Below, in pieces: positions 1-27,301 of a DNA stretch of 54,847 bases. Below the pieces are notes generated by a model that was not told where the DNA came from, did no database searches, and worked only from the letters and a program-made list of their open reading frames with translations. Origin of the DNA: Escherichia coli (GTDB lineage Bacteria > Pseudomonadota > Gammaproteobacteria > Enterobacterales > Enterobacteriaceae); NCBI RefSeq assembly GCF_003334385.1, contig NZ_QOWN01000031.1; one strand, given 5' to 3'. Position numbers and translations under genes: made by a program. Position 1 is the stretch's first letter; every line of letters starts with the position of its first letter.

Positions 1-1
1 G

Positions 2-739
2 TGGCTTGCGCAGTGCGGGCTGACGGTGGAGCAACTGGCCAGACAGGTGGAGCCGGAATACACACCGGCGCGAAAAGCTCATCTTTATCACTGCGACCAC
101 CGGGGACTGCCGCTGGCGCTTATCAGCGAAGACGGCAATACGGCGTGGAGCGCGGAATATGATGAATGGGGCAACCAGCTTAATGAGGAGAACCCGCATC
201 ATGTGTATCAGCCGTACCGTCTGCCAGGGCAGCAGCATGATGAGGAATCAGGGCTGTACTATAACCGTCACCGGTACTACGATCCGTTGCAGGGGCGGTA
301 TATTACTCAGGACCCGATGGGGTTGAAAGGGGGATGGAATTTATATCAGTATCCTTTAAATCCACTACAACAAATTGACCCTATGGGATTATTGCAGACT
401 TGGGATGATGCCAGATCTGGAGCATGTACGGGGGGAGTTTGTGGTGTTCTTTCACGTATAATAGGACCAAGTAAATTTGATAGTACTGCAGATGCTGCGT
501 TAGATGCTTTGAAAGAAACGCAGAATAGATCTCTATGTAATGATATGGAATACTCTGGTATTGTCTGTAAAGATACTAATGGAAAATATTTTGCATCTAA
601 GGCAGAAACTGATAATTTAAGAAAGGAGTCATATCCTCTGAAAAGAAAATGTCCCACAGGTACAGATAGAGTTGCTGCTTATCATACTCACGGTGCAGAT
701 AGTCATGGCGATTATGTTGATGAATTTTTTTTCAAGTAG
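2..739 (+). CDS. rhsD: Rhs protein C-terminal end (5' partial): conserved core end with DPxGL motifs followed by a variable C-terminal toxin domain
   Basis: Open frame from the window start; translation contains the typical Rhs core end ([25 protein letters not shown]), then a divergent tail; the following gene is ybbC as in K-12. Confidence 0.75.
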
Positions 740-938
740 CGATAAAAATCTTGTAAGAAGTAAAGATAATAATCTTGAAGCATTTTATCTCGCAACACCT
801 GATGGACGATTTGAGGCGCTTAATAATAAAGGAGAATATATTTTTATCAGAAATAGTGTCCCGGGATTGAGTTCAGTATGCATACCGTATCATGATTAAT
901 TTTAGTGCTTTTATTAGTGGGGCCTATAAGGAGATTCA

Positions 939-1307
939 ATGAAATATAGTTCAATATTTTCGATGCTTTCATTTTTTATACTATTTGTCTGTAATGAGAC
1001 AGCTGTTTACGGTTCTGATGAAAACATTATTTTTATGAGGTATGTGGAAAAATTACATTTAGATAAATACTCTGTTAAAAATACGGTAAAAACTGAAACA
1101 ATGGCGATACAATTAGCTGAAATATATGTTAGGTATCGCTATGGCGAACGGATTGCAGAAGAAGAAAAACCATATTTAATTACGGAACTACCAGATAGTT
1201 GGGTTGTTGAGGGAGCAAAGTTACCTTATGAAGTTGCGGGTGGTGTATTTATTATAGAAATTAATAAGAAAAATGGATGTGTTTTGAATTTCCTACATAG
1301 TAAATAA
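939..1307 (+). CDS. ybbC: Small protein following the Rhs C-terminal toxin, putative cognate immunity protein
   Basis: 122-aa ORF with AAGGAG ribosome-binding site upstream, AT-rich, position immediately after the Rhs C-terminus; length matches K-12 YbbC. Confidence 0.7.
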
Positions 1308-2017
1308 TGCTGGCGCTGATGGATGCGGATGGAAACATTGCGTGGAGCGGGGAGTATGATGAGTGGGGCAACCAGCTGAATGAAGAGAACCCGCATCACC
1401 TGCACCAGCCGTACCGGCTGCCGGGGCAGCAGTATGATAAGGAGTCGGGGCTGTACTACAACCGGAACCGGTACTACGATCCGTTGCAGGGGCGGTATAT
1501 CACTCAGGACCCGATAGGGCTGGAGGGGGGATGGAGTCTGTATGCGTATCCGCTGAATCCGGTGAATGGTATTGATCCATTAGGGTTAAGTCCCGCAGAT
1601 GTAGCGCTAATAAGAAGAAAAGATCAACTAAACCATCAAAGAGCATGGGATATATTATCTGATACTTATGAAGATATGAAGAGATTAAATTTAGGTGGGA
1701 CTGATCAATTTTTCCATTGTATGGCATTTTGTCGAGTGTCTAAATTAAATGACGCTGGTGTTAGCCGATCGGCGAAAGGGCTGGGTTATGAAAAAGAGAT
1801 TAGAGATTACGGGTTAAATCTGTTCGGTATGTACGGCAGAAAAGTAAAGCTATCCCATTCTGAAATGATTGAAGATAATAAAAAAGACTTGGCTGTAAAT
1901 GACCATGGGTTGACATGTCCATCAACAACAGATTGCTCAGATAGATGTAGTGATTATATTAATCCAGAGCATAAAAAAACGATAAAGGCTTTACAAGATG
2001 CTGGCTATCTCAAGTAA
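1307..2017 (+). pseudogene. ylbH: Orphan Rhs C-terminal module (displaced core fragment plus alternative toxin domain)
   Basis: Translation repeats the Rhs core end ([33 protein letters not shown]) and then diverges; start overlaps the ybbC stop; no full Rhs core upstream. Confidence 0.65.
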
Positions 2018-2234
2018 TCTATCAAAGATGATAATATTTATTTTTGCTATTATAATCATTGTTGTTTTATGCGTAATTACTTATCTTTATTTATACAAAG
2101 ATGAATCTCTTGTAAGTAAACATTACATAAACTATATGGCAATACCAGAAAATGATGGAGTTTTTACATGGCTCCCAGATTTTTTTTCCGCACGTAGCGG
2201 TGGATATATCAATATACACAAATGTAGAAGATGA
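1998..2234 (+). CDS. Small hydrophobic protein, possible immunity partner of the orphan Rhs module
   Basis: 78-aa ORF overlapping the end of the orphan module; strongly hydrophobic N-terminus ([22 protein letters not shown]); AT-rich. Confidence 0.35.
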
Positions 2235-2291
2235 TTATTTTTTTCTTATTTTTCCCTAACAAATGATGATGGGGGTAGGTTTAAGAAAACA

Positions 2292-2489
2292 TTGACAGTG
2301 AGGGCCAGGGAACAAGTGGCGAAAATCGTATCAAAGAATGATCCAGATACAAAAAAAGTGTGGTGTAAATATGGTAAGATACCAGGGCAAGGGGATGGTG
2401 TAAACCTTTTTTTTGTTGGTGAAATTAATGTTACGCATTATTTTATAACAAATATTGGAGCTGGATTGCCTGATGCTTGTGCAGAGTAA
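2292..2489 (+). CDS. Hypothetical small protein
   Basis: 65-aa ORF in AT-rich Rhs-associated DNA; no recognisable motif. Confidence 0.2.
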   Translation: MTVRAREQVAKIVSKNDPDTKKVWCKYGKIPGQGDGVNLFFVGEINVTHYFITNIGAGLPDACAE

Positions 2490-3003
2490 TTGCTTGAATT
2501 AAGAGTCTATCCCATATCGAAGTCGTCAACTTCGTAGTGAGGAAAAGTAAAATTCCTGACTGAGAAAAGACATGTCGGCTATTGTGTAAAGCCATATAGC
2601 TCAGACGATGAATATCTACTCGTATTCAGTTGTTTATTGAGGGTGAGTTCCGACCCTGAAACAACAAATAAAATGAACAGTCAGAGAGTTTACATAGAAT
2701 TGCACTGGTCTTTTACGATATCTGACATTGTGTAATACATATTCAGCCATGCATTAATTAAAATGTTACGTGTTTAATGTGAGTCCCTATCTGAAAATAA
2801 ATAATCCTTCCGGATTAAAATAAATTCTTGCCGGGAAAGAAAGAGGAAATAAACCATTAGCGGAAAACCAGCGGCACGCCAGGGTGACATGCCCCAGTAC
2901 GGCGGCCCGATAGTCCAGGGTTCAGCGGGGGTACTGATAGTCGCGCCGACTGCATCGAGAACTCCATACAACTTTTTACGGAACGTCACCTGATAAAATT
3001 TGT

Positions 3004-3411
3004 TCAGTATCGTCTTTTGAGATTCTCAAGGTTATGGAGTAACCAGACAGAACGGACACCACTGTCGGAGATAAAAACCCCCTGTTTACGCAGCTCGTTG
3101 CTGGCCCGGTGCTGACCATGTGTCGGGAAAGCGACGGCGTAATCAACAACAGCCTGTTCAGTTGCCTCATCGGTACGGTTCTTAAGGTTAGGAGCGCGGC
3201 GACTACGATTAATCTGCGCATCCACACCGCCTTCAGCGACCAGTTCGCGGTAACGATAAAACGTATCACGCGAAACGCCCATGATTTTACAGGCTTTTGA
3301 TACGTTGCTGAGTTCTTCAGCCAGATTGAGCAAACCGGCTTTGTGTTTGATGACGGGATTGGCAGTATGAAGCATGAGAGTTACCTCTTGTTTTGGATAA
3401 GGATTCGACAC
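3004..3411 (-). pseudogene. ylbG: Transposase-like helix-turn-helix fragment (truncated or frameshifted IS remnant)
   Basis: 135-aa ORF with an HTH-like segment (KACKIMGVSRDTFYRYRE); continues in overlapping minus-strand frames 2976-3269 and 2774-2989, suggesting a decayed gene. Confidence 0.45.
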
Positions 3412-3490
3412 TCATATCAAAACCGGTAACTCTCAACCTTTCAAGGCCATGTGTCAGATCAAGTCGCGACTAATACAAATACGTCCCTCA

Positions 3491-4600
<1,110 letters not shown>

Positions 4601-4653
4601 TCAAATCAGCTTGCGCGCTATTTTACGCGCCAACGCGCAAGGAAACTTGATTT

Positions 4654-5580
4654 TTAACTGCGTGGGTTGCCGAAAATTTCTAAAAATCCGCTGATTTCCG
4701 GCCTGCGCTGGGTAAACAAGGTCACAATATCTTCTACCGCTTTGCCGCTGCCAAATTTGCGCCATGCCAGACTCAATGGCGAAGGAGGGCGCATCGTTGG
4801 GATTACCCGGCTGACCAGTTGTTGATTATCGATCATTGACTGGCAAAGCGATTTTGGCAAAAAACCAATGCCAACGCCCGCCAGATGGGCGGCGATTTTC
4901 GTTTCCATATCGGGAACAATAATCTCTTTTTGCCCTGGCAATCGCCAGGCGACGCGTTTGGTTAAGGTGCGGGCGCTGTCTTCAATATTGACCGCCGGAA
5001 AGCGCCGCAACTGCGCTTCTGTTAGCGGCTCTTCAACGTTCGCCAGCGGATGATCCGCCGCCATGACAAAGCGCCATTGCACCGATCCTAAGGGATCAAG
5101 ACTAAAGGTATTTGCCAGCGCCTCAGTTCCCGTGACGCCGATAGCCAGCGAAAAACCTTCGTACAATAGCGAGTCCCAGACGCCCATATAGATTTGTCGG
5201 GAGATGTGAAACTGGGTAAAGGGGTAACGCTCATTCAGCCACGCCAGCAACTGGGCGACGGCCTGGGGGTTGTAGAGCAGGTTGTTGATGACAATATTCA
5301 CCTGGCGTTCCACGCCATCATTCACCTGTTGCAGCTCGCTTGGCATACTTTCCAGCCAGCTCAGCCAGTCTCTGGCCTGGGAAAGTAGATGCTCGCCAGC
5401 CGCTGTCAACGTCACGCTGCGAGTCGTACGGAAAAACAGCGCTACTCCGGTATTCTCTTCCAGAAGTTTAATGCGATAACTGATCGTCGCCGTGGTTTTA
5501 CATAATCGTTCTGCCGCTTTTGAAAAACTTCCTGTTTCAGCAACCGCAATGAAAGTCCGCAAGGTTTCTGGATCGAACAT
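4654..5580 (-). CDS. allS: LysR-family transcriptional activator of allantoin utilisation
   Basis: 308-aa ORF with N-terminal LysR HTH ([23 protein letters not shown]); divergent from allA. Confidence 0.85.
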
Positions 5581-5809
5581 CTTCAGGTATCCCCTTTTAA
5601 ATCCGCAAGTTGCGTGATTTTCTTATCCTCTGATTTATCAGTATTTTTACATGATAACCCTGTTCAATTTGTGGACTAAATCTAGTTTTGGAAAAATATT
5701 CCAGCTTTTGTATTGATGTTGTTCTCTTAAGGTTTTAGATTGCCTGTTATTGAAACCAAGCTGACCGGTCGGCGGTGGTTGAACGGAATTATGTTACAAG
5801 GACAAAAAG

Positions 5810-6292
5810 ATGAAACTTCAGGTATTACCGTTAAGTCAGGAAGCCTTTAGTGCTTATGGCGACGTAATCGAAACGCAGCAACGGGATTTTTTCCATATTA
5901 ACAATGGCCTGGTGGAGCGTTACCACGATTTGGCGCTGGTTGAGATTCTTGAGCAAGACCGTACGCTTATCAGCATTAACCGCGCGCAACCGGCGAATCT
6001 GCCGCTGACCATTCACGAACTCGAACGTCATCCGCTGGGTACTCAGGCCTTTATCCCGATGAAAGGTGAGGTGTTTGTGGTGGTCGTGGCGTTAGGTGAC
6101 GACAAACCAGACCTGTCAACGCTGCGGGCGTTTATCACCAACGGCGAACAGGGAGTGAATTACCATCGTAACGTCTGGCATCACCCACTTTTCGCCTGGC
6201 AGCGCGTCACCGATTTTCTGACCATCGATCGCGGCGGCAGTGACAACTGTGATGTTGAAAGTATTCCTGAACAGGAACTCTGTTTTGCGTGA
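5810..6292 (+). CDS. allA: Ureidoglycolate lyase
   Basis: 160-aa ORF; synteny allS-allA-allR. Confidence 0.85.
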
Positions 6293-6369
6293 CGCCTGCA
6301 ACCGACTTGCATAAGATAAACTAATTGTTCATTGTTTATGCTCACTTGTAGGTCGGAGTTAACGTAGGT

Positions 6370-7185
6370 ATGACGGAAGTTAGACGGCGCGGCAGGCCAG
6401 GACAGGCGGAGCCTGTGGCACAGAAGGGCGCACAGGCGTTAGAGCGGGGAATTGCGATTCTGCAATATTTGGAAAAAAGTGGGGGAAGTTCGTCGGTTAG
6501 CGATATTTCTCTCAATCTGGATTTGCCGCTCTCCACGACCTTTCGCTTGCTGAAGGTTTTACAGGCAGCGGATTTTGTCTATCAGGACAGTCAATTAGGC
6601 TGGTGGCATATAGGATTAGGTGTCTTTAACGTCGGTGCGGCGTACATCCATAACCGCGATGTCCTCTCCGTCGCCGGGTCGTTTATGCGCCGCCTGATGT
6701 TACTTTCCGGCGAAACGGTCAATGTCGCGATCCGTAACGGCAATGAAGCGGTATTAATTGGTCAGTTAGAGTGTAAATCGATGGTCAGGATGTGTGCGCC
6801 ACTGGGCAGTCGTCTGCCACTGCATGCTTCCGGTGCGGGCAAAGCGCTGCTTTATCCGCTGGCGGAAGAGGAGTTGATGAGCATCATTCTGCAAACCGGT
6901 TTGCAGCAGTTTACGCCAACTACGCTTGTGGATATGCCCACCTTGCTGAAGGACCTGGAACAAGCGCGTGAACTGGGCTATACCGTAGATAAAGAAGAGC
7001 ATGTTGTAGGTCTGAATTGCATAGCTTCAGCAATTTACGATGATGTCGGTAGTGTTGTTGCCGCTATCTCCATCTCCGGGCCTTCATCAAGACTGACAGA
7101 AGATCGTTTTGTCAGTCAGGGTGAGCTGGTCAGAGACACCGCCCGCGATATCAGCACGGCGTTGGGACTGAAAGCACATCCATAA
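6370..7185 (+). CDS. allR: IclR-family repressor of the allantoin regulon
   Basis: 271-aa ORF with IclR-type N-terminal HTH and C-terminal effector domain; synteny. Confidence 0.85.
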
Positions 7186-7274
7186 TGTCTGTCGCATCCC
7201 GCTCTGCGGAGCGGGTTTTTTTGACAAAATTTGAAAGTTGGAAAAATTTTCCAATAAATAGAGGTAGGAATAAA

Positions 7275-9056
7275 ATGGCAAAAATGAGAGCCGTTGACGC
7301 GGCAATGTATGTGCTGGAGAAAGAAGGTATCACTACCGCCTTCGGTGTTCCGGGAGCTGCAATCAATCCGTTCTACTCAGCGATGCGTAAGCACGGCGGT
7401 ATTCGTCACATTCTGGCGCGTCATGTGGAAGGTGCTTCGCACATGGCGGAAGGTTATACCCGCGCAACGGCAGGGAATATCGGCGTATGTCTGGGGACTT
7501 CCGGTCCTGCGGGCACGGACATGATCACCGCGCTCTATTCCGCTTCTGCTGATTCCATTCCTATTCTGTGCATTACCGGCCAGGCACCGCGCGCCCGTCT
7601 GCATAAAGAAGATTTTCAGGCCGTAGATATTGAAGCAATTGCTAAACCGGTCAGCAAAATGGCGGTTACAGTTCGTGAAGCGGCGCTGGTGCCTCGCGTG
7701 CTGCAACAGGCATTTCACCTGATGCGTTCTGGTCGTCCGGGTCCGGTACTGGTGGATTTACCGTTCGACGTTCAGGTTGCGGAAATCGAGTTTGATCCTG
7801 ACATGTACGAACCGCTGCCGGTCTACAAACCTGCTGCCAGCCGTATGCAGATCGAAAAAGCTGTAGAAATGTTAATCTAGGCCGAACGTCCGGTGATTGT
7901 TGCCGGGGGCGGGGTAATTAATGCTGACGCAGCTGCACTGTTACAACAGTTTGCTGAACTGACCAGCGTTCCGGTGATCCCAACGCTAATGGGCTGGGGC
8001 TGTATCCCGGACGATCATGAACTGATGGCCGGGATGGTGGGTCTGCAAACCGCGCATCGTTACGGTAACGCAACGCTGCTGGCGTCTGACATGGTGTTTG
8101 GTATCGGTAACCGTTTTGCTAACCGTCATACCGGCTCGGTAGAGAAATACACCGAAGGGCGCAAAATCGTTCATATTGATATTGAGCCGACGCAAATTGG
8201 TCGCGTGCTGTGTCCGGATCTCGGTATTGTCTCTGATGCTAAAGCGGCGCTGACACTGCTGGTTGAAGTGGCGCAGGAGATGCAAAAAGCGGGTCGTCTG
8301 CCGTGTCGTAAAGAATGGGTCGCCGACTGCCAGCAGCGTAAACGCACTTTGCTGCGCAAAACCCACTTCGACAACGTGCCGGTGAAACCGCAGCGCGTGT
8401 ATGAAGAGATGAACAAAGCCTTTGGTCGCGATGTTTGTTATGTCACCACCATTGGTCTGTCACAAATCGCTGCGGCACAAATGCTGCATGTCTTTAAAGA
8501 CCGCCACTGGATCAACTGTGGTCAGGCTGGTCCGTTAGGCTGGACGATTCCGGCTGCGCTAGGGGTTTGTGCCGCTGATCCGAAACGCAATGTGGTGGCG
8601 ATTTCTGGCGACTTTGACTTCCAGTTCCTGATTGAAGAGTTAGCTGTTGGCGCGCAGTTCAACATTCCGTACATCCATGTGCTGGTCAACAACGCTTATC
8701 TGGGGCTGATTCGTCAGTCACAACGCGCTTTTGACATGGACTACTGCGTGCAACTCGCTTTCGAGAATATCAACTCCAGTGAAGTGAATGGCTACGGTGT
8801 TGACCACGTAAAAGTAGCGGAAGGTTTAGGTTGTAAAGCTATTCGGGTCTTCAAACCGGAAGATATTGCGCCAGCCTTTGAACAGGCGAAAGCCTTAATG
8901 GCGCAATATCGGGTACCGGTAGTCGTGGAAGTTATTCTCGAGCGTGTGACCAATATTTCGATGGGCAGCGAACTGGATAACGTCATGGAATTTGAAGATA
9001 TCGCCGATAACGCAGCGGACGCACCGACTGAAACCTGCTTCATGCACTATGAATAA
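7275..9056 (+). pseudogene. gcl: Glyoxylate carboligase (TPP enzyme) interrupted by an in-frame TAG stop at 7878-7880
   Basis: Start [19 protein letters not shown] at 7275; reading frame ...[25 protein letters not shown] continues in the same frame to 9056; ORF track splits it into 7185-7880 and 7893-9056. Confidence 0.85.
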
Positions 9057-9068
9057 GGGAGATAAATA

Positions 9069-9845
9069 ATGTTACGTTTCTCTGCTAATTTATCGATGTT
9101 ATTTGGAGAATATGATTTTCTCGCCCGTTTTGAGAAAGCTGCGCAGTGTGGTTTTCGCGGCGTTGAATTTATGTTTCCTTATGACTACGACATTGAAGAA
9201 TTAAAACATGTGCTGGCGAGTAATAAACTCGAACATACGCTGCACAATTTACCGGCGGGTGACTGGGCGGCGGGGGAGCGCGGTATTGTCTGTATTCCTG
9301 GCCGTGAAGAAGAGTTTCGGGATGGCGTAGCAGCAGCGATTCGTTATGCCCGTGCGCTGGGTAATAAAAAAATTAACTGTCTGGTCGGTAAAACGCCGGC
9401 TGGTTTCAGCAGTGAACAGATTCACGCAACGCTTGTAGAAAACCTGCGTTATGCCGCGAATATGCTGATGAAAGAAGATATTTTATTACTGATTGAACCT
9501 ATTAACCATTTTGATATTCCTGGTTTCCATCTCACCGGAACTCGGCAGGCGCTGAAATTGATTGATGATGTTGGTTGCTGCAATTTGAAAATTCAGTATG
9601 ACATTTATCATATGCAGCGGATGGAAGGTGAATTAACCAACACCATGACTCAGTGGGCTGATAAAATTGGTCACCTGCAAATTGCCGATAATCCGCATCG
9701 CGGCGAACCGGGAACCGGAGAAATTAATTATGATTATCTCTTTAAGGTAATCGAAAATTCTGACTACAACGGTTGGGTTGGGTGTGAATATAAACCCCAA
9801 ACCACCACGGAAGCCGGTTTACGCTGGATGGATCCGTACCGTTAA
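9069..9845 (+). CDS. hyi: Hydroxypyruvate isomerase
   Basis: 258-aa ORF; synteny gcl-hyi-glxR. Confidence 0.85.
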   Translation: MLRFSANLSMLFGEYDFLARFEKAAQCGFRGVEFMFPYDYDIEELKHVLASNKLEHTLHNLPAGDWAAGERGIVCIPGREEEFRDGVAAAIRYARALGNKKINCLVGKTPAGFSSEQIHATLVENLRYAANMLMKEDILLLIEPINHFDIPGFHLTGTRQALKLIDDVGCCNLKIQYDIYHMQRMEGELTNTMTQWADKIGHLQIADNPHRGEPGTGEINYDYLFKVIENSDYNGWVGCEYKPQTTTEAGLRWMDPYR

Positions 9846-9944
9846 AACGTAACGCTATTCAGACAATGCTTTTTTAGGCCGCTAAGTTGGCAGGGGATCG
9901 TGTTGTCTGAATTCAGGAAAAGCGAAATTTAAAAGAGGTTAATT

Positions 9945-10823
9945 ATGAAACTGGGATTTATTGGCTTAGGCATTATGGGTACACCGATGGCCATTAATCT
10001 GGCGCGTGCCGGTCATCAATTACATGTCACGACCATTGGACCGGTTGCTGATGAATTACTGTCACTGGGTGCCGTCAGTGTTGAAACTGCTCGCCAGGTA
10101 ACGGAAGCATCGGACATCATTTTTATTATGGTGCCGGACACACCTCAGGTTGAAGAAGTTCTGTTCGGTGAAAATGGTTGTACCAAAGCCTCGCTGAAGG
10201 GCAAAACCATTGTTGATATGAGCTCCATTTCCCCGATTGAAACTAAGCGTTTCGCTCGTCAGGTGAATGAACTGGGCGGCGATTATCTCGATGCGCCAGT
10301 CTCCGGCGGTGAAATCGGTGCGCGTGAAGGGACGTTGTCGATTATGGTTGGCGGTGATGAAGCGGTATTTGAACGTGTTAAACCGCTGTTTGAACTGCTC
10401 GGTAAAAATATCACCCTCGTGGGCGGTAACGGCGATGGTCAAACCTGCAAAGTGGCAAATCAGATTATCGTGGCGCTCAATATTGAAGCGGTTTCTGAAG
10501 CCCTGCTATTTGCTTCAAAAGCCGGTGCGGACCCGGTACGTGTGCGCCAGGCGCTGATGGGCGGCTTTGCTTCCTCACGTATTCTGGAAGTTCATGGCGA
10601 GCGTATGATTAAACGCACCTTTAATCCGGGCTTCAAAATCGCTCTGCACCAGAAAGATCTCAACCTGGCACTGCAAAGTGCGAAAGCACTTGCGCTGAAC
10701 CTGCCAAACACTGCGAGCTGCCAGGAGTTATTTAATACCTGTGCGGCAAACGGTGGCAGCCAGTTGGATCACTCTGCGTTAGTGCAGGCGCTGGAATTAA
10801 TGGCTAACCATAAACTGGCCTGA
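9945..10823 (+). CDS. glxR: Tartronate semialdehyde reductase
   Basis: 292-aa ORF with N-terminal NAD-binding motif GFIGLGIMG. Confidence 0.85.
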   Translation: MKLGFIGLGIMGTPMAINLARAGHQLHVTTIGPVADELLSLGAVSVETARQVTEASDIIFIMVPDTPQVEEVLFGENGCTKASLKGKTIVDMSSISPIETKRFARQVNELGGDYLDAPVSGGEIGAREGTLSIMVGGDEAVFERVKPLFELLGKNITLVGGNGDGQTCKVANQIIVALNIEAVSEALLFASKAGADPVRVRQALMGGFASSRILEVHGERMIKRTFNPGFKIALHQKDLNLALQSAKALALNLPNTASCQELFNTCAANGGSQLDHSALVQALELMANHKLA

Positions 10824-10991
10824 TACCCGCAATAAAAATGGCCGATATCAGAAAATGAATCGGCCAGCAATATTAAAAAAGAAAGCAGCCAAAGATGTTG
10901 CTTCAGTATTAAAAATAATATTTTTATTTTATTTGTTCCTCATAGCTAGATTAAAACAACGTTATTCGATACGTGAAATTAAGAGGGATTT

Positions 10992-12446
10992 ATGGAACAT
11001 CAGAGAAAACTATTCCAGCAACGCGGCTATAGCGAAGATCTATTGCCGAAAACGCAAAGCCAGCGGACCTGGAAAACATTTAACTATTTTACCTTATGGA
11101 TGGGTTCGGTTCATAACGTTCCCAATTATGTGATGGTCGGCGGCTTTTTTATTCTCGGCTTGTCTACCTTTAGTATTATGCTGGCAATTATCCTCAGCGC
11201 CTTTTTCATTGCCGCGGTAATGGTATTAAACGGTGCTGCGGGCAGTAAATACGGTGTGCCTTTTGCCATGATCCTGCGTGCTTCTTACGGTGTACGTGGT
11301 GCACTGTTTCCCGGATTATTAAGGGGCGGAATTGCCGCCATCATGTGGTTTGGTTTGCAATGTTACGCGGGGTCACTGGCCTGCTTGATTCTGATTGGCA
11401 AAATCTGGCCGGGATTTTTAACTCTCGGTGGTGATTTCACTCTGTTAGGCCTTTCTCTACCGGGCTTAATTACTTTCTTAATCTTCTGGCTGGTCAACGT
11501 TGGTATAGGTTTTGGCGGTGGCAAAGTTTTAAATAAATTCACTGCCATTCTTAACCCGTGCATCTATATCGTTTTCGGCGGTATGGCGATTTGGGCGATT
11601 TCACTGGTCGGGATCGGTCCAATCTTTGACTACATTCCGAGCGGTATTCAGAAAGCAGAAAACGGTGGCTTCCTGTTCCTGGTGGTGATTAACGCGGTAG
11701 TTGCGGTCTGGGCGGCACCGGCGGTGAGCGCATCCGACTTTACGCAAAACGCCCACTCGTTTCGTGAGCAGGCGCTGGGGCAAACGCTGGGTTTAGTTGT
11801 GGCCTATATTCTGTTTGCGGTCGCCGGGGTATGTATTATTGCCGGAGCCAGTATTCACTGCGGCGCTGATACCTGGAACGTGCTGGATATTGTTCAGCGT
11901 TGGGACAGTCTGTTCGCCTCGTTCTTTGCGGTACTGGTTATTCTGATGACAACTATCTCCACTAACGCGACCGGTAATATTATTCCAGCCGGTTATCAGA
12001 TTGCCGCCATTGCACCGACAAAACTGACCTATAAAAACGGCGTACTGATTGCCAGTATTATCAGCTTGCTGATCTGCCCGTGGAAATTAATGGAAAATCA
12101 GGACAGCATTTATCTTTTCCTTGATATTATCGGCGGAATGCTTGGTCCGGTAATTGGTGTCATGATGGCGCATTATTTTGTGGTGATGCGCGGACAAATT
12201 AATCTTGATGAACTGTATACCGCACCTGGCGATTATAAATATTACGATAACGGTTTTAACCTCACTGCGTTTTCAGTAACTCTGGTGGCCGTTATTTTAT
12301 CTCTTGGCGGTAAGTTTATTCACTTTATGGAACCGTTATCGCGTGTTTCATGGTTTGTCGGCGTCATCGTCGCCTTTGCGGCCTACGCCTTATTAAAGAA
12401 ACGTACAACAGCAGAAAAAACAGGAGAGCAAAAAACCATAGGTTAA
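10992..12446 (+). CDS. ybbW: Putative allantoin permease (NCS1-family transporter)
   Basis: 484-aa polytopic membrane protein; synteny. Confidence 0.8.
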   Translation: MEHQRKLFQQRGYSEDLLPKTQSQRTWKTFNYFTLWMGSVHNVPNYVMVGGFFILGLSTFSIMLAIILSAFFIAAVMVLNGAAGSKYGVPFAMILRASYGVRGALFPGLLRGGIAAIMWFGLQCYAGSLACLILIGKIWPGFLTLGGDFTLLGLSLPGLITFLIFWLVNVGIGFGGGKVLNKFTAILNPCIYIVFGGMAIWAISLVGIGPIFDYIPSGIQKAENGGFLFLVVINAVVAVWAAPAVSASDFTQNAHSFREQALGQTLGLVVAYILFAVAGVCIIAGASIHCGADTWNVLDIVQRWDSLFASFFAVLVILMTTISTNATGNIIPAGYQIAAIAPTKLTYKNGVLIASIISLLICPWKLMENQDSIYLFLDIIGGMLGPVIGVMMAHYFVVMRGQINLDELYTAPGDYKYYDNGFNLTAFSVTLVAVILSLGGKFIHFMEPLSRVSWFVGVIVAFAAYALLKKRTTAEKTGEQKTIG

Positions 12447-12505
12447 TTAATCCCGATATTGAACATTGAGTTAAAAACCAATCTGTATTTTACAAGGAGT
12501 TTGTT

Positions 12506-13867
12506 ATGTCTTTTGATTTAATCATTAAAAACGGCACCGTTATTTTAGAAAACGAAGCTCGCGTTGTAGATATCGCCGTTAAAGGCGGAAAAATTGCTGC
12601 TATCGGTCAGGATCTGGGCGATGCAAAAGAAGTTATGGATGCGTCTGGTCTGGTGGTTTCGCCGGGCATGGTTGATGCGCACACCCATATTTCTGAACCG
12701 GGTCGTAGCCACTGGGAAGGTTATGAAACCGGTACTCGCGCAGCGGCAAAAGGTGGTATCACCACCATGATCGAAATGCCGCTCAACCAGCTGCCTGCAA
12801 CGGTTGACCGCGCTTCAATTGAACTGAAGTTCGATGCCGCTAAAGGCAAGCTGACTATTGATGCGGCACAACTCGGTGGCCTGGTGTCTTACAACATCGA
12901 CCGTCTGCATGAGCTGGATGAAGTGGGCGTTGTCGGCTTCAAATGCTTCGTTGCGACCTGTGGCGATCGCGGTATCGACAACGACTTCCGTGATGTAAAC
13001 GACTGGCAGTTCTTCAAAGGTGCGCAGAAGCTGGGCGAACTGGGTCAGCCGGTGCTGGTGCACTGCGAAAACGCGCTGATTTGTGACGAACTGGGCGAAG
13101 AAGCGAAGCGTGAAGGTCGCGTAACCGCTCATGACTATGTGGCTTCGCGTCCGGTATTTACCGAAGTGGAAGCAATTCGCCGCGTACTGTATCTGGCGAA
13201 AGTTGCTGGTTGCCGTCTGCACGTTTGCCACGTCAGCAGCCCGGAAGGTGTTGAGGAAGTGACTCGTGCACGTCAGGAAGGTCAGGACGTTACTTGTGAA
13301 TCCTGCCCGCATTACTTTGTACTGGATACCGATCAGTTCGAAGAAATCGGTACTCTGGCGAAGTGTTCACCGCCGATCCGCGATCTGGAAAACCAGAAAG
13401 GCATGTGGGAAAAACTGTTTAACGGTGAAATCGACTGCCTGGTTTCCGACCACTCTCCATGCCCGCCGGAAATGAAAGCCGGTAACATCATGAAAGCATG
13501 GGGCGGTATCGCCGGTCTGCAAAGCTGCATGGACGTGATGTTCGATGAAGCGGTACAGAAACGCGGTATGTCTCTGCCAATGTTCGGCAAATTAATGGCG
13601 ACTAACGCAGCAGATATTTTCGGTCTGCAGCAAAAAGGCCGTATCGCCCCAGGAAAAGATGCCGACTTCGTCTTCATTCAGCCGAATAGCAGCTATGTTC
13701 TTACCAATGACGATCTGGAATATCGCCACAAAGTCAGCCCGTATGTTGGCCGTACCATTGGCGCGCGTATCACGAAAACCATCTTACGTGGTGATGTGAT
13801 TTACGACATTGAACAGGGCTTCCCTGTTGCGCCGAAAGGTCAATTTATCCTTAAACATCAGCAGTAA
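12506..13867 (+). CDS. allB: Allantoinase
   Basis: 453-aa ORF with amidohydrolase metal-binding motifs (DAHTH near the N-terminus); synteny. Confidence 0.85.
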
Positions 13868-13923
13868 TCTGGCCCCTGCAATGCCCGTCCTTGCGGCGGG
13901 CATTCTCCGGTTAAGGTGTGTTT

Positions 13924-15225
13924 ATGTTCAATTTTGCAGTCAGCCGCGAAAGCCTGTTATCAGGATTTCAGTGGTTTTTCTTTATTTTTTGCAACACGGT
14001 TGTGGTTCCTCCTACGCTACTTTCTGCTTTTCAGTTGCCGCAAAGTAGCCTGCTTACGCTCACGCAATATGCTTTTCTTGCTACCGCACTGGCCTGCTTC
14101 GCTCAGGCGTTTTGCGGTCATCGTCGCGCTATTATGGAAGGGCCAGGTGGCCTGTGGTGGGGAACCATCCTTACTATCACCCTTGGTGAAGCATCGCGCG
14201 GGACACCGATCAACGATATCGCCACCAGCCTGGCAGTGGGGATTGCACTCTCCGGCGTGCTGACGATGTTGATTGGTTTTAGCGGATTAGGCCATCGCCT
14301 GGCACGGTTATTTACGCCGTCGGTGATGGTCTTGTTTATGTTGATGCTGGGCGCGCAGCTGACCACTATCTTTTTCAAAGGTATGCTCGGGCTGCCGTTT
14401 GGCATAGCCGACCCGAATTTTAAAATTCAGTTACCGCCGTTCGCGCTCTCGGTGGCGGTGATGTGCCTGGTACTGGCGATGATTATCTTCCTGCCGCAAC
14501 GTTTTGCCCGTTATGGCCTGCTGGTCGGCACCATAACCGGCTGGTTGTTGTGGTACTTTTGCTTTCCTTCTTCGCACTCGCTCTCCGGTGAGTTGCACTG
14601 GCAGTGGTTCCCGCTCGGCAGTGGCGGTGCTTTGTCGCCGGGAATTATTCTGACGGCGGTGATTACAGGTCTGGTAAATATCAGCAATACCTACGGTGCG
14701 ATTCGGGGCACGGATGTTTTTTATCCGCAGCAGGGCGCAGGGAATACGCGTTATCGTCGTAGCTTTGTGGCGACCGGATTTATGACGCTGATAACCGTAC
14801 CGCTGGCGGTAATTCCATTTTCACCGTTTGTTTCATCCATTGGTTTATTAACCCAGACTGGCGATTACACGCGGCGTTCGTTTATTTATGGCAGCGTTAT
14901 TTGCCTGCTGGTGGCGCTGGTTCCTGCACTCACGCGACTGTTTTGCAGTATCCCTTTACCCGTGAGTAGTGCGGTCATGCTGGTTTCTTATCTGCCTTTA
15001 CTCTTTTCCGCGCTGGTGTTTAGCCAGCAAATAACGTTTACCGCTCGCAATATTTATCGACTCGCATTGCCGTTATTTGTCGGCATATTTTTAATGGCAT
15101 TACCGCCTGTGTATCTGCAAGACCTTCCATTAACGCTTCGTCCTCTGCTCAGTAACGGCTTATTGGTCGGGATTTTACTGGCTGTTCTTATGGATAACCT
15201 TATTCCGTGGGAACGCATCGAATAA
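13924..15225 (+). CDS. ybbY: Putative purine/nucleobase permease
   Basis: Polytopic membrane protein; start chosen at MFNFAVSRES (the ORF track begins 2 codons earlier at 13918). Confidence 0.75.
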   Translation: MFNFAVSRESLLSGFQWFFFIFCNTVVVPPTLLSAFQLPQSSLLTLTQYAFLATALACFAQAFCGHRRAIMEGPGGLWWGTILTITLGEASRGTPINDIATSLAVGIALSGVLTMLIGFSGLGHRLARLFTPSVMVLFMLMLGAQLTTIFFKGMLGLPFGIADPNFKIQLPPFALSVAVMCLVLAMIIFLPQRFARYGLLVGTITGWLLWYFCFPSSHSLSGELHWQWFPLGSGGALSPGIILTAVITGLVNISNTYGAIRGTDVFYPQQGAGNTRYRRSFVATGFMTLITVPLAVIPFSPFVSSIGLLTQTGDYTRRSFIYGSVICLLVALVPALTRLFCSIPLPVSSAVMLVSYLPLLFSALVFSQQITFTARNIYRLALPLFVGIFLMALPPVYLQDLPLTLRPLLSNGLLVGILLAVLMDNLIPWERIE

Positions 15226-15246
15226 TTTGTTGAAAAAGGATTGATA

Positions 15247-16392
15247 ATGAAGATTGTCATTGCGCCAGACTCTTTTAAAGAGAGCTTAAGTGCAGAAAAA
15301 TGTTGTCAGGCAATTAAAGCCGGGTTTTCGACCCTCTTTCCCGATGCGAACTATATCTGTTTGCCGATAGCGGATGGCGGCGAAGGGACGGTGGATGCGA
15401 TGGTCGCCGCGACGGGCGGCAACATCGTGACGCTTGAAGTCTGCGGGCCGATGGGCGAAAAAGTGAATGCTTTTTATGGCCTTACCGGCGACGGGAAAAC
15501 GGCGGTGATTGAGATGGCGGCAGCAAGTGGCCTGATGCTGGTCGCGCCTGAAAAGCGTAATCCGTTGCTGGCCTCCAGTTTTGGTACGGGGGAGTTAATT
15601 CGTCATGCGCTGGATAACGACATTCGCCATATTATTCTCGGCATTGGCGGCAGTGCGACGGTCGACGGCGGTATGGGCATGGCGCAGGCGCTCGGTGTGC
15701 GTTTCCTTGATGCCGACGGTCAGGCGCTGGCGGCAAACGGTGGTAATTTAGCGCGCGTGGCAAGCATTGAGATGGATGAATGCGATCCGCGTCTGGCGAA
15801 TTGCCATATTGAAGTAGCATGTGACGTTGATAACCCGCTGGTAGGGGCACGCGGCGCGGCGGCGGTGTTTGGCCCGCAAAAAGGGGCAACGCCGGAGATG
15901 GTCGAAGAACTTGAACAGGGGCTGCAAAATTACGCCCGTGTTTTACAACAGCAAACTGAAATTAATGTCTGCCAGATGGCGGGCGGCGGCGCTGCGGGCG
16001 GTATGGGTATTGCGGCGGCGGTATTTCTCAATGCGGATATTAAACCGGGCATTGAAATTGTGTTGAATGCGGTCAATCTTGCGCAGGCAGTGCAGGGCGC
16101 AGCACTGGTGATTACCGGGGAAGGGCGCATCGACTCGCAAACGGCAGGCGGTAAAGCGCCGCTGGGTGTGGCGTCGGTGGCGAAGCAGTTTAATGTACCG
16201 GTGATTGGGATTGCTGGCGTATTGGGTGATGGCGTGGAAGTGGTGCACCAGTACGGCATTGACGCGGTATTCAGCATTTTGCCTCGTCTGGCACCTTTAG
16301 CCGAAGTGCTCGCCAGCGGTGAAACCAATCTCTTCAACAGCGCGCGAAATATTGCCTGCGCCATTAAAATAGGTCAGGGAATTAAAAACTAA
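15247..16392 (+). CDS. glxK: Glycerate kinase II
   Basis: 381-aa ORF starting [16 protein letters not shown]; glycerate kinase family; synteny. Confidence 0.85.
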
Positions 16393-19722: not shown

Positions 19723-20038
19723 CTGTCTTCCTTTTTAACGACGGTGTGAAGCATGACTGCAATTAACATACAGGGAAAATATCTGGATTATGTGATCCAG
19801 ACAGGCAAGAAAATATAGTTAGAATTTATTTGATAATCCGCTCACTTTTAACCTGATTTTTAAAACAACCACGCTTATTAAAAAATAATGAGTAATAGCC
19901 TGGCGGTTATTTGAATTCTTTTGTTAATAATTCCTGTGTGATATTCATCACCTTATTTACTCGTTGTCATCGATACCGTAATCGCCACATTAACACTGCT
20001 CGTGCAATTGCCATGGGTGCAATTTTTAAGGAGTTGTT

Positions 20039-21706
20039 ATGATCCACGCCTTTATTAAAAAAGGGTGTTTTCAGGATTCGGTCAGTTTAATGATTATTTC
20101 ACGAAAACTCAGCGAATCAGAAAATGTTGATGATGTTTCCGTAATGATGGGTACGCCCGCCAATAAAGCGTTATTAGATACCACAGGTTTCTGGCATGAC
20201 GATTTTAATAACGCCACGCCGAACGATATTTGCGTGGCAATTCGTAGCGAAGCGGCGGATGCGGGGATCGCGCAGGCGATTATGCAGCAGCTTGAAGAGG
20301 CGCTAAAACAACTGGCGCAGGGGTCAGGCTGCAGCCAGGCGTTGACGCAGGTGCGTCGCTGGGACAGTGCCTGTCAGAAATTACCCGACGCCAGTCTGGC
20401 GCTGATTTCAGTGGCTGGCGAGTATGCGGCGGAGCTGGCGAACCAGGCGCTGGATCGCAACCTCAACGTGATGATGTTCTCCGATAACGTCACGCTGGAA
20501 GATGAAATCCAACTTAAAAGCCGCGCGCGGGAAAAAGGCTTGCTGGTGATGGGGCCGGACTGCGGTACGTCGATGATTGCCGGCACGCCGCTGGCTTTTG
20601 CTAACGTGATGCCGGAAGGCAATATTGGCGTCATTGGCGCTTCCGGTACCGGGATTCAGGAACTGTGTTCGCAGATTGCGCTGGCAGGGGAGGGAATTAC
20701 TCACGCGATTGGCCTTGGCGGGCGCGACCTCAGCCGTGAAGTGGGCGGCATCAGTGCGCTGACGGCGCTGGAAATGCTCAGTGCAGACGAGAAAAGCGAA
20801 GTGCTGGCATTTGTTTCAAAACCGCCTGCCGAAGCTGTGCGTCTGAAAATTGTTAATGCCATGAAAGCAACCGGCAAACCGACGGTGGCGCTGTTTTTAG
20901 GTTATACCCCGGCGGTGGCCCGCGACGAGAATGTCTGGTTTGCCTCCTCGCTGGATGAGGCCGCACGCCTGGCTTGCCTGCTTTCACGCGTTACGGCGCG
21001 ACGTAACGCGATAACGCCTGCCAGCAGCGGATTTATTTGCGGTTTGTATACCGGCGGTACCCTGGCTGCCGAAGCGGCGGGATTACTTGCTGGACACCTT
21101 GGCGTGGAAGCCGACGATACCCATCATCACGGCATGATGCTCGACGCCGATGGTCACCAGATTATTGACCTCGGCGATGATTTCTACACCGTCGGGCGTC
21201 CCCATCCGATGATCGACCCAGCCTTACGCAATCAGTTAATTGCCGATCTCGGCGCTAAACCGCAAGTGCGCGTATTGCTGCTTGATGTCGTGATTGGCTT
21301 CGGTGCGACCGCCGATCCTGCCGCCTCGCTGGTAAGCGCCTGGCAAAAAGCCTGTGCTGCGCGTTCAGACAATCAACCACTGTATGCCATTGCCACGGTG
21401 ACAGGCACTGAACGTGACCCGCAATGCCGCTCGCAGCAAATCGCCACGCTGGAAGATGCGGGGATCGCGGTAGTGAGTTCGCTGCCGGAAGCCACCTTGC
21501 TGGCGGCGGCACTGATTCGTCCGCTTTCGCCTGCCACTCAGCAACACACACCGTCATTACTGGAAAACGTCGCCGTGATTAACATCGGATTACGCAGCTT
21601 TGCGCTGGAGCTACAAAGCGCCAGCAAACCGGTTGTGCATTACCAATGGTCGCCAGTCGCCGGCGGCAATAAAAAACTGGCTCGTTTATTAGAACGTTTG
21701 CAATAA
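20039..21706 (+). CDS. fdrA: FdrA protein (acyl-CoA synthetase/succinyl-CoA ligase-like)
   Basis: 555-aa ORF; synteny fdrA-ylbE-ylbF-ybcF. Confidence 0.8.
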   Translation: MIHAFIKKGCFQDSVSLMIISRKLSESENVDDVSVMMGTPANKALLDTTGFWHDDFNNATPNDICVAIRSEAADAGIAQAIMQQLEEALKQLAQGSGCSQALTQVRRWDSACQKLPDASLALISVAGEYAAELANQALDRNLNVMMFSDNVTLEDEIQLKSRAREKGLLVMGPDCGTSMIAGTPLAFANVMPEGNIGVIGASGTGIQELCSQIALAGEGITHAIGLGGRDLSREVGGISALTALEMLSADEKSEVLAFVSKPPAEAVRLKIVNAMKATGKPTVALFLGYTPAVARDENVWFASSLDEAARLACLLSRVTARRNAITPASSGFICGLYTGGTLAAEAAGLLAGHLGVEADDTHHHGMMLDADGHQIIDLGDDFYTVGRPHPMIDPALRNQLIADLGAKPQVRVLLLDVVIGFGATADPAASLVSAWQKACAARSDNQPLYAIATVTGTERDPQCRSQQIATLEDAGIAVVSSLPEATLLAAALIRPLSPATQQHTPSLLENVAVINIGLRSFALELQSASKPVVHYQWSPVAGGNKKLARLLERLQ

Positions 21707-21715
21707 GGGGTTCCC

Positions 21716-22975
21716 ATGTTTACATCAGTGGCGCAAGCCAATGCTGCGATTATCGAACAAATTCGTCGCGCTCGTCCACACTGGCTGGATGTGCAACCGG
21801 CTTCTTCACTTATCAGCGAACTAAACCAGGGCAAAACACTGCTTCACGCCGGGCCGCCAATGCGCTGGCAGGAGATGACCGGACCTATGAAAGGGGCGTG
21901 CGTGGGCGCATGTCTGTTCGAAGGTTGGGCGAAAGATGAAGCGCAGGCGCTGGCAATACTGGAGCAGGGGGAAGTGAACTTCATTCCTTGTCACCATGTG
22001 AATGCCGTCGGGCCAATGGGCGGTATTACTTCTGCCAGTATGCCGATGCTGGTGGTCGAGAACGTGACCGACGGCAACCGGGCGTACTGCAACCTCAACG
22101 AAGGTATCGGCAAAGTGATGCGTTTTGGCGCTTATGGCGAAGATGTCCTGACTCGCCATCGCTGGATGCGCGATGTGTTAATGCCAGTATTAAGCGCGGC
22201 GCTGGGGCGCATGGAGCACGGTATCGATCTCACGGCGATGATGGCGCAGGGCATTACCATGGGCGATGAGTTCCATCAACGCAATATTGCTTCCTCAGCA
22301 CTGTTAATGCGTACGCTGGCCCCACAAATTGCTCGCCTCGATCATGATAAACAGCACATTGCGGAAGTGATGGATTTCCTCAGCGTGACCGATCAGTTCT
22401 TCCTCAACCTCGCGATGGCCTACTGCAAGGCGGCGATGGATGCTGGCGCGATGATCCGCGCAGGCAGCATCGTTACGGCTATGACCCGCAACGGCAATAT
22501 GTTCGGGATTCGGGTAAGCGGGCTGGGTGAACGCTGGTTTACTGCGCCTGTAAACACTCCGCAAGGTCTGTTTTTCACCGGCTTCTCGCAGGAGCAGGCG
22601 AACCCGGATATGGGCGATAGCGCGATTACCGAAACCTTTGGTATCGGAGGTGCGGCAATGATCGCAGCGCCTGGCGTAACGCGCTTTGTCGGTGCGGGTG
22701 GCATGGAAGCGGCCAGGGCGGTATCTGAAGAGATGGCGGAAATTTACCTTGAACGCAATATGCAGTTGCAGATCCCAAGCTGGGATTTTCAGGGCGCCTG
22801 CCTGGGACTGGACATTCGTCGCGTGGTAGAAACCGGTATTACGCCACTCATCAATACCGGTATCGCCCATAAAGAGGCGGGGATCGGGCAGATTGGCGCA
22901 GGCACCGTGCGGGCACCGCTGGCGTGTTTTGAACAGGCGCTGGAAGCACTGGCTGAAAGCATGGGGATTGGTTGA
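21716..22975 (+). CDS. ylbE: DUF1116-family protein
   Basis: 419-aa intact ORF; synteny. Confidence 0.75.
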
Positions 22976-22985
22976 GGAACGCACA

Positions 22986-23801
22986 ATGACGATCATCCAT
23001 CCTCTGCTTGCCAGTAGTAGCGCACCGAATTATCGCCAGTCCTGGCGGTTAGCGGGAGTGTGGCGACGGGCGATTAACCTGATGACGGAAAGCGGCGAAC
23101 TGTTAACGCTGCATCGTAAGGGTAGTGGTTTCGGCCCCGGAGGATGGGTGCTTCGCCGCGCGCAATTCGATGCGTTATGCGGTGGATTATGCGGCAATGA
23201 ACGACCGCAGGTTGTGGCTCAAGGGATTCGCCTCGGGCGTTTCACGGTTAAACAGCCACAGCGTTATTGTTTGCTGCGTATTACGCCGCCTGCGCATCCT
23301 CAACCGCTTGCAGCTGCATGGATGCAACGCGCGGAGGAAACCGGGCTTTTCGGGCCACTGGCGATGGCGGCAAGCGATCCGCTGCCCGCTGAATTACGCC
23401 AGTTTCGTCACTGTTTTCAGGCCGCGCTCAATGGCGTTAAGACCGACTGGCGGCACTGGCTGGGTAAAGGACCCGGATTAACGCCAAGTCATGATGATAC
23501 GCTGAGCGGAATGCTGCTGGCGGCCTGGTATTATGGCGCTTTAGATGCGCGCTCTGGTCGCCAGTTTTTTGCCTGTTCCGACAATCTTCAACTCGTTACC
23601 ACAGCGGTGAGCGTCAGTTATTTACGCTACGCCGCGCAAGGATATTTCGCCTCGCCACTCCTGCACTTTGTTCATGCTCTGAGTTGCCCGAAACGTACCG
23701 CTGTTGCGATTGATTCGCTGCTGGCGCTGGGGCACACGTCAGGGGCAGATACGCTGCTGGGGTTCTGGCTTGGTCAACAATTATTACAAGGAACACCATG
23801 A
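22986..23801 (+). CDS. ylbF: Conserved protein of the oxamate/carbamate branch
   Basis: Start taken at [11 protein letters not shown] (271 aa); the ORF track extends upstream to 22893, overlapping ylbE. Confidence 0.75.
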
Positions 23802-24691
23802 AAACACTGGTTGTAGCTCTTGGGGGCAACGCCTTACTCCAGCGCGGCGAGGCGCTGACGGCAGAAAATCAATATCGCAATATCGCCAGTGCTGTACCCG
23901 CGCTGGCGCGCCTGGCCCGTTCTTATCGGCTGGCGATTGTTCACGGCAACGGGCCGCAGGTGGGGCTGCTGGCATTGCAGAATCTGGCGTGGAAAGAGGT
24001 AGAACCGTATCCGCTGGATGTGCTGGTGGCGGAAAGCCAGGGGATGATTGGCTATATGCTGGCACAGAGTTTGAGCGCACAGCCGCAGATGCCGCCCGTG
24101 ACGACGGTGCTGACGCGCATTGAGGTTTCGCCTGATGATCCGGCGTTTTTGCAGCCAGAGAAATTTATTGGTCCGGTTTATCAGCCAGAAGAACAAGAGG
24201 CACTGGAAGCGGCTTACGGCTGGCAGATGAAACGTGATGGTAAATATTTGCGCCGGGTGGTGGCGTCTCCGCAACCGCGTAAAATTCTCGACAGCGAAGC
24301 CATCGAGTTGTTGCTCAAAGAGGGGCATGTGGTGATTTGCAGTGGCGGCGGCGGTGTGCCTGTGACGGAAGATGGGGCAGGGAGTGAAGCGGTGATTGAT
24401 AAAGATCTCGCTGCTGCGTTGCTCGCTGAGCAGATTAACGCCGATGGGCTGGTGATCCTCACTGATGCTGATGCGGTATATGAAAACTGGGGAACGCCGC
24501 AGCAACGCGCCATTCGCCATGCCACACCGGATGAGTTAGCGCCATTTGCCAAAGCCGATGGTTCGATGGGGCCGAAGGTAACGGCGGTGAGTGGTTATGT
24601 CAGAAGCCGTGGTAAACCCGCGTGGATTGGGGCGTTATCGCGAATTGAAGAGACGCTGGCGGGCGAAGCGGGGACCTGTATTTCGCTGTAG
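23798..24691 (+). CDS. ybcF: Carbamate kinase-like protein
   Basis: 297-aa ORF with amino-acid kinase family features ([13 protein letters not shown]); synteny. Confidence 0.8.
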
Positions 24692-24699
24692 TCGTAGGC

Positions 24700-24880
<181 letters not shown>

Positions 24881-24885
24881 ACCAG

Positions 24886-25953
24886 TTAACCGAACTTACT
24901 CTGCGCCCAAATCACGCCGCTGGCATATTCCGGCGGCAGCAGCGGGATTAAGGCTTCCAGCGTCGCAGTCAGACGCGATGTGTCGCTGTCGGTCAAATTC
25001 AGATGCCCCACTTTACGCCCCGGACGGACTTCTTTGTCGTACCAGTGCAGATGCACCAGCGGCAATTTCAGCCAGTCATAATTCACATCGCTACCAATCA
25101 GATTGATCATCACCGACGGATTATTCACTACTGGTTGCGGTAACGGCAGATCGGTAATCGCCCGCAGATGCAGCTCAAACTGGCTGATGCTGGCACCGTT
25201 TTGCGTCCAGTGACCACTGTTATGCACACGCGGAGCCAGTTCGTTGATCAGCAGACCTTGCGGGGTGACAAAACACTCCATCGCCATCACGCCCACATAG
25301 CCCAGCTCCTGCATAATCGCCGACAGCATCTCTTCGGCTTGCGCCTGCTGCTGTGCGTTGGCCTGCGGAAAAGCGACGCTGGTGCGCAAAATACCGTCCT
25401 GATGCAGGTTATGCGTCAGCGGATAAAACACGGTGCTGCCATCAAAGCCGCGCGCGCCAACCAGCGACACTTCACCAGAGAAGTTTATGCCCTGCTCGAC
25501 AATACATTCGCCGTAGCATTCAGCCGGTAACTGTTCGGTTTCATCGGCGCGTAAACGCCATTGACCGCGTCCGTCATAGCCACCAGTGCGACGCTTAACA
25601 ATCGCCAGTTCACCTAAACGATCAAACACCGCAGGCCACTCGCTGCGATCGGCAAGTAACTGCCACGGCGCGGTCGGCAGGTGGAGCTTATCGAAAAGCT
25701 GCTTCTGAGTCAGACGGTCGGCAATAATCGGGAACACATCGCGGTTCACAAAGGCCGGATGGCGTGCCAGCTCGCGGGTTAATGCGGTTTCCGGCCAACG
25801 TTCGATCTCAGCGGTAATCACGCTTTGTTGAAAAGGCACCGCCGCCGGTTCAGCGTCCAGCCCGACCGGCCAGACAGCAATGCCTAACGGTTCGCCTGCC
25901 TGACGCAGCATACGGCCTAACTGCCCGTTACCGAGGACGCAAACCTGTTTCAT
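24886..25953 (-). CDS. purK: N5-carboxyaminoimidazole ribonucleotide synthase
   Basis: 355-aa ATP-grasp ORF beginning [16 protein letters not shown]; overlaps the purE stop. Confidence 0.9.
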
Positions 25954-26459: not shown

Positions 26460-26576
26460 GCGTCTTAAAACTCCTGTGGTGCACAACTCTCGGCTTTAGA
26501 GGGCACAGAGAATAGCACGGAAAGAGAGTAAGGAAAACGGTTGCGTGGCTGTGAAATCAGCAAAGTTGCGGGTTTT

Positions 26577-27299: not shown

Positions 27300-27301
27300 G
27301 A

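Follow-up and report, generated by a model that had tools for sequence, protein, structure and literature searches.

PMC3150448, and Jackson 2009 as cited there, describe Rhs systems in which a main Rhs gene is accompanied by orphan C-terminal (CT)/immunity modules, an arrangement produced by C-terminal displacement. One CT toxin domain, DUF4329, corresponds to Tox-JAB-2 of Zhang et al. 2012 and is characterized by the motif E, H[ST]H, S, and D (PMC3482391). Imm-NTF2-2 is stated to be the immunity partner of Tox-JAB-2 and was reported from Escherichia coli only (PMC3482391). Regarding the target of Tox-JAB-2, a nuclease rather than a peptidase has been suggested (PMC3482391), and PMC7216683 cites an RNase claim for the toxin. 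Here we describe an Rhs array in the left part of a stretch of E. coli DNA of 54,847 nucleotides, referred to as the window (assembly GCF_003334385.1, contig NZ_QOWN01000031.1). Like the main-gene-plus-orphan systems (PMC3150448), the window contains a core end closing in PxxxxDPxGL, a variable CT, a small gene, and then a displaced core end joined to another CT. The window differs from these systems in that poly-T frameshifts inactivate both the main toxin and the partner gene of the orphan, and no sign of orphan expression was seen.

Gene array of the rhsD locus

We found that the left part of the window is the rhsD-ybbC-ylbH-ybbD-ylbG-mnmH region of E. coli, with the same genes, order, and sequence as Rhs element D of K-12. 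Positions 1-3939 differ from MG1655 in three places only, namely an additional T at 725, a C>T substitution at 988, and an additional T at 2180. Compared to the K-12 locus, T8 in place of T7 at 725 cuts the 1426 aa of RhsD to 1373 aa (the latter figure being the product seen in K-12-like T8 loci), the private substitution at 988 replaces Ala17 of YbbC with Val, and T8 in place of T7 at 2180 is a second frameshift in the ybbD pseudogene.

All features from rhsD to ybbD lie on the plus strand. The window begins inside rhsD, and positions 2-361 encode the 3' end of the conserved Rhs core (Pfam RHS, PF03527, E = 2.6e-16). The core closes in the PxxxxDPxGL boundary motif at 362-391 (by translation, with the motif as defined in PMC3150448), which is the start of the variable toxin tip. 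A truncated Tox-JAB-2/DUF4329 domain occupies 392-739, where translation, Pfam, and alignment place residues 1-113 followed by Phe-Lys-stop. The rest of the domain, residues 114-168, lies out of frame at 732-899 and ends at TAA 897-899 (translation, alignment, and AF2 model). Downstream is ybbC (939-1307), an intact immunity gene of 122 aa with an Imm-NTF2-2 domain (PF15631, positions 1-68 of 68, E = 6.8e-26), which PGAP names either 'YbbC/YhhH family' or 'NTF2 fold immunity protein'. An RHS core end closing in PxxxxDPxGL, followed by a DUF4329 CT and then by Imm-NTF2-2 YbbC, identifies the locus as a member of the Rhs/YD-repeat polymorphic toxin family, and the pairing of Tox-JAB-2 with Imm-NTF2-2 at rhsD-ybbC matches the listing in PMC3482391. 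In related T8 loci, the tip is preceded by DUF6531, RHS_repeat, and YD-shell domains.

The second Rhs module, ylbH, spans 1307-2017, matches NCBIfam RHS_core at positions 1169-1261 of 1261, and is recorded by PGAP as 'missing N-terminus'. It consists of a displaced core end (1307-1558), a PxxxxDPxGL-type motif (1559-1588), and a different CT (1589-2014). An earlier note on this DNA had proposed that the window opens in an Rhs core end followed by a variable CT and ybbC, and that another core end, displaced and joined to a different CT, lies at 1307-2017; both parts of this description are confirmed here. The last member of the array is the ybbD pseudogene (1998-2489; NCBIfam NF011298, 163 aa), which has a hydrophobic N-terminal segment and is probably the immunity counterpart of the orphan CT. 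The core ends have a GC content of 58%, compared to 31-37% for the tips and small genes, and the step at the boundary motif is from 58% to 36%. A scan of 600-2700 for promoters and terminators returned counts no higher than those of shuffled controls. Between the Rhs array and mnmH, ylbG (window ORF 3004-3411, minus strand) is an HTH-domain pseudogene that is truncated according to PGAP.

YlbH retains 94 core-end residues and a tip that is full length compared with its homologues. Genome 2012C-4606, of O26 type, has this tip fused straight to the main Rhs core gene. The RhsD CT of O157 EDL933 has been described as serum-amyloid-A-like, and a Pfam search with the ylbH tip (1589-2014) returned one weak serum-amyloid-A (SAA) match and nothing else. 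Relatives of this tip come from E. coli, Hafnia, and Rahnella only and form too small and too similar a set, and its AF2 model is poor (pLDDT 51).

The T8 tract and the toxin domain of RhsD

The rhsD reading frame (frame 2) ends at TAG 737-739, right behind a run of eight T at 725-732. Deletion of one T joins this frame to that of the ORF at 672-899, giving a net gain of 53 residues and an end at TAA 897-899, which precedes the ybbC ATG (939) by 39 nt. Thus, the stop position at 739 given in the earlier note is exact, and its estimate of about 53 further residues ending about 40 bp short of ybbC was accurate. In MG1655, rhsD is intact, carries T7 (TTT TTT TCA, encoding Phe112-Phe113-Ser114), and ends 39 nt before ybbC. 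PGAP labels rhsD of T8 genomes 'frameshifted', and gene callers list separately an ORF of 64 aa (705-899) that exists in the T8 frame only.

We found that the repaired (T7) tip matches Pfam DUF4329 (PF14220) over positions 2-114 of 116 (E = 2.6e-37). As encoded with T8, the domain ends after residue 113 of about 160 and a full-length DUF4329 match is absent. An exhaustive search of representatives with the toxin domain yielded 254 relatives and was used to build the alignment; a word-indexed homologue search had given only close E. coli relatives and fragments. Across 43 diverse homologues, the invariant columns are exactly E53, H98, H100, S114, and D117, with F113, T135, and P136 nearly invariant. 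In the window, E53 (548-550), H98 (683-685), and H100 (689-691) are still in frame, the latter two as H98-T-H100. The shift falls after F113 and places S114 (732-734), D117 (741-743), and all residues beyond them out of frame. The E, H[ST]H, S, D motif is therefore incomplete in the window, where rhsD is a disrupted member of the family.

The AF2 model of the repaired tip, computed from the same alignment, is confident (pLDDT 93.2) and places a helix (115-122) and three strands (130-134, 140-144, and 149-153) beyond the break. Its top PDB structure match is the JAB1/MPN protein AF2198 (1oi0, probability 0.99), and lower-ranked matches are MPN proteins including Prp8, Npl4, and BRCC36; a PDB sequence search with the repaired CT gave no matches. 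These data indicate that the repaired RhsD tip has a predicted JAB/MPN-like fold. In common with JAMM/MPN metalloenzymes (AF2198 1oi0, Rpn11, BRCC36, and CSN5), the tip has invariant E, HxH, S, and D residues in canonical order and a matching predicted fold, but identity is only about 10-14% and the TM-score is modest (0.37 by query length and 0.53 by target length). Since the shift costs the domain two of its five invariant motif residues (S114 and D117) and about a third of its fold, including a helix and three strands, folding and toxin activity should be abolished, and the T8-truncated RhsD toxin is predicted to be dead.

In contrast to the toxin domain, the reading frame of ybbC, which sits 200 nt 3' of the truncated rhsD stop, is intact. 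Since ybbC is untouched, a T8 strain would be expected to keep the protection by YbbC and would still resist RhsD-type toxin from neighbours. Our literature search found no experimental paper on the RhsD-CT/YbbC pair. Taken together, the best explanation, which we consider likely, is that one T was gained by strand slippage in the T7 run, giving a toxin-null, immunity-positive rhsD allele. We infer slippage as the cause of T8. Strand slippage would add one T to the T7 run encoding Phe112-Phe113-Ser114 of the RhsD toxin domain, the shifted frame would halt translation two codons on, and the product would be the Rhs shell plus toxin-domain residues 1-113. Such slipped-strand mutation would be nothing out of the ordinary for TTT TTT runs in acquired, AT-rich cassettes.

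Tract length among genomes and the standing of the T8 allele

This toxin tip is present in 1,878 complete E. coli genomes, whose alleles we sorted with short tract-centred queries. T7, the length carried by K-12, was present in 1,831 genomes (97.5%), T6 in 23 (1.2%, with one K-12 DH5alpha assembly among the carriers), T8 in 16 (0.85%), and T9 in none (0%), while eight genomes (0.4%) fell into other classes (nearby SNPs or partial). As judged from these sequences, the functional form is T7, from which T8 is derived as a rare +1 allele. The earlier note had interpreted the stop as a frameshift in a slippage-prone T tract. Our data support this interpretation, since T7 with the extended ORF is found in MG1655 and in 97.5% of the genomes that carry this CT, and the extension completes DUF4329. 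Comparison with rhsD CT alleles of other strains, which could have revealed T8 references without extended homologues, instead revealed T7 references with extended homologues. Among the origins that the note had left side by side for the annotated stop, genuine inactivation by way of a variable tract has the best support, and a sequencing error in this one assembly is improbable. In many genomes, we also observed that IS1 had inserted into the rhsD tip or at the ybbC 3' end, a second frequent inactivation route for the same toxin.

We next considered that the extra T might be a sequencing or assembly homopolymer error in this record, such that the strain is truly T7 with an intact rhsD. The change is a +1 in a run of seven, a second +1 T occurs within 1.5 kb (at 2180), and T6 and T8 each account for about 1% of complete genomes, including one of K-12 DH5alpha and noisy assemblies in which further homopolymer deletions occur (ET474, GDSC2BY4G, and 254D-1), all of which is consistent with error. 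However, within the 39 kb alignable to MG1655 (99.3% identity), homopolymer indels are confined to the two T tracts, the other 11 homopolymers of at least seven are unchanged, and no other coding gene, housekeeping genes included, is frameshifted. Furthermore, both altered tracts lie in dispensable sequence, as real neutral mutations predict.

The distribution of T8 among genomes also argues against error. In the flanking 30-kb haplotypes of 15 T8 and six T7 genomes, at least four backgrounds carry T8. One narrow flanking haplotype is common to 11 of the 16 complete T8 genomes, which come from China, Japan, the UK, Thailand, Viet Nam, and Cuba and from many laboratories. The frequency of T8 is about 50% within this haplotype and about 0.3% elsewhere, a pattern that random error would not produce (the haplotype-specific 2.1-kb query was blurred because BLAST joined orphan core-end pieces, and only its score ranking was used). 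Three T8 assemblies contain no other small indels in 30 kb. The T8-specific ORF of 64 aa (705-899) was found on 454 public contigs (698 index blocks). Among the ten places listed for this ORF, eight are multi-contig draft records, and all ten have T8, on at least four haplotypes diverged from the window by 0.05-1.4%, some of them with intact ybbD. The presence of T8 on 454 contigs and on at least four haplotypes, together with its clustering by haplotype, shows that T8 is a genuine allele that recurs in nature. We therefore regard T8 as probably real in the source strain of this assembly and a homopolymer error in this record as unlikely.

Single-nucleotide differences bear on the same question. 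Positions 1-15400 contain seven private SNPs (988, 4115, 5704, 6679, 7878, 9289, and 10717), i.e., SNPs absent from the compared genomes, and none of the 5,426 complete E. coli genomes searched carries them. Across 3900-11000, where six of them lie, every complete E. coli genome shows several mismatches, and a 34-mer with the private 988 SNP had no exact match in viral_contigs or genome_contigs. Those at 988 and 9289 are one and the same change, TTG[C>T]CTGTA, and affect the sole two such 9-mers in the sequence alignable to MG1655, which hints at an error in the record; this repeated pattern could stem either from consensus errors that depend on context or from a mutational process acting at specific sites. 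A third private SNP turns the inner C of a Dcm site (CCAGG) into T. A mutator signature (five C>T and no G>A among the private SNPs) was considered and dropped, the sample being too small.

Differences from MG1655 in the alignable 39 kb fall mostly within a 20-36 kb block. This block (20000-36000) is about 2% diverged from MG1655, compared to about 0.05% in its flanks, and since the flanks are near-identical it was probably imported by recombination. Within the block, 9 nt are duplicated at 31240, in the intergenic region upstream of folD, and the usher gene sfmD carries at 34535 an insertion of 6 nt that keeps the reading frame. In related loci, fixed differences between flanking haplotype groups cluster in one short, mosaic part of the rhsD core that lies about 1.2-2.6 kb 5' of the tract, a pattern that looks like gene conversion between rhs paralogues.

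Poly-T tracts and probable decay of the cassette

The AT-rich CT/immunity stretch (331-2500) contains four poly-T runs of at least seven, whereas shuffling predicts 0.35, and not one of 2000 shuffled sequences contained as many as four. These tracts (725-732, 2180-2187, 2238-2244, and 2407-2414) all encode Phe-Phe (TTT TTT) in the intact frames, and all of them vary in length among E. coli genomes. Two of the three tracts beyond that of rhsD break ybbD in the window. The enrichment of poly-T is explained by TTT TTT codons in AT-rich cassettes (37% GC).

The small hydrophobic ORF that the earlier note had placed behind the orphan module is indeed present at 1998-2234, but it is not a complete gene; it comprises the first 64 in-frame residues of YbbD and is the N-terminal piece of the ybbD pseudogene. 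NF011298 is matched by this ORF at profile positions 1-64 and by the ORF at 2292-2489 at positions 99-163. The gene is broken by a +1 shift at T8 2180-2187 and a -1 shift at T7 2238-2244, while the tract at 2407-2414 has its intact length. The two shifts are 58 nt apart and the frame is regained after 15 codons. Since a TGA (2232-2234) lies inside the shifted stretch, the near-compensation of +1 and -1 fails, and the two frameshifts and the internal TGA leave no single YbbD ORF of 163 aa in the window. With both tracts repaired, the protein is 100% identical to the intact 163-aa YbbD of strain ET761, whose tracts are T7 at 2180, T8 at 2238, and T8 at 2407. Intact ybbD was found in ET761 and SC467 as well as in draft genomes. 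K-12 has T7 at 2238 (i.e., the -1 shift); the intact T8 at this tract occurs in only 530 of 2,327 genomes, and the +1 shift (T8) at the 2180 tract in 181 of 2,568. Intact YbbD had no match in the Pfam library searched, and a newer family, YbbD_head (PF26610), is on record.

Homopolymer contingency loci of Neisseria, Haemophilus, and Campylobacter change frame through the length of a mononucleotide run and have +1 and -1 alleles, and in both respects the rhsD tract is alike. The tract might accordingly be thought of as a functional switch, either a reversible, phase-variable on/off element or a T8 allele that leaks full-length toxin through slippage of RNA polymerase or the ribosome on U8/T8. 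Features consistent with a switch are the occurrence of both -1 (T6) and +1 (T8) alleles on several backgrounds, the T7 genomes among near-identical T8 haplotypes, which could be revertants, and the four variable Phe-Phe poly-T tracts within 2.2 kb. Slippage-mediated correction of frameshifts at A/T runs is also documented, mostly for runs of at least nine and occasionally of eight (PMC1088944). RNA polymerase slippage on U8 could give trace amounts of full-length RhsD, although PMC1088944 is mainly on runs of nine.

The rhsD tract differs from contingency loci in that it is short, its in-frame state is near fixed (97.5%), and there is no sign of an off state that is maintained or rapidly reversed. 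On and off lengths are not both common (T7 97.5%, T6 1.2%, T8 0.85%, and T9 0), and since the in-frame state is near fixed, the tract is not a contingency locus. For switching at a high rate in repair-proficient E. coli, a homopolymer of 7-8 is short. Furthermore, all 43 aligned homologues stay in frame through the tract region, and since these homologues and MG1655 are in frame, rhsD is not a gene of programmed frameshifting or transcriptional slippage. Finally, TTT TTT codons in AT-rich cassettes are enough to account for the density of poly-T tracts. Viewed across the cassette, it is very unlikely that the Phe-Phe poly-T tracts act as recurrent, partly reversible switches between armed and merely immune states with a leaky, low-dose T8 toxin. 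A functional switch at the rhsD tract itself, reversible or leaky, is most improbable. Based on these sequences, the pattern at the rhsD tract is best read as decay and not as regulation.

This type of event has already been described, as have the domain pair and the orphan architecture, and the T8 allele is flagged by standard annotation in other genomes; beyond annotation, the finding of T8 in rhsD is of little consequence. For annotation, the fitting label for rhsD of this strain is frameshifted pseudogene, and that for ybbC is intact, orphaned immunity gene. Allele counts at the four tracts could serve as a benchmark for distinguishing real homopolymer polymorphism from assembly error. TTT TTT runs are a tendency of AT-rich acquired DNA, and at such Phe-Phe runs the locus offers a clean, small example of how a polymorphic-toxin cassette decays, in which the toxin goes first and the immunity stays.
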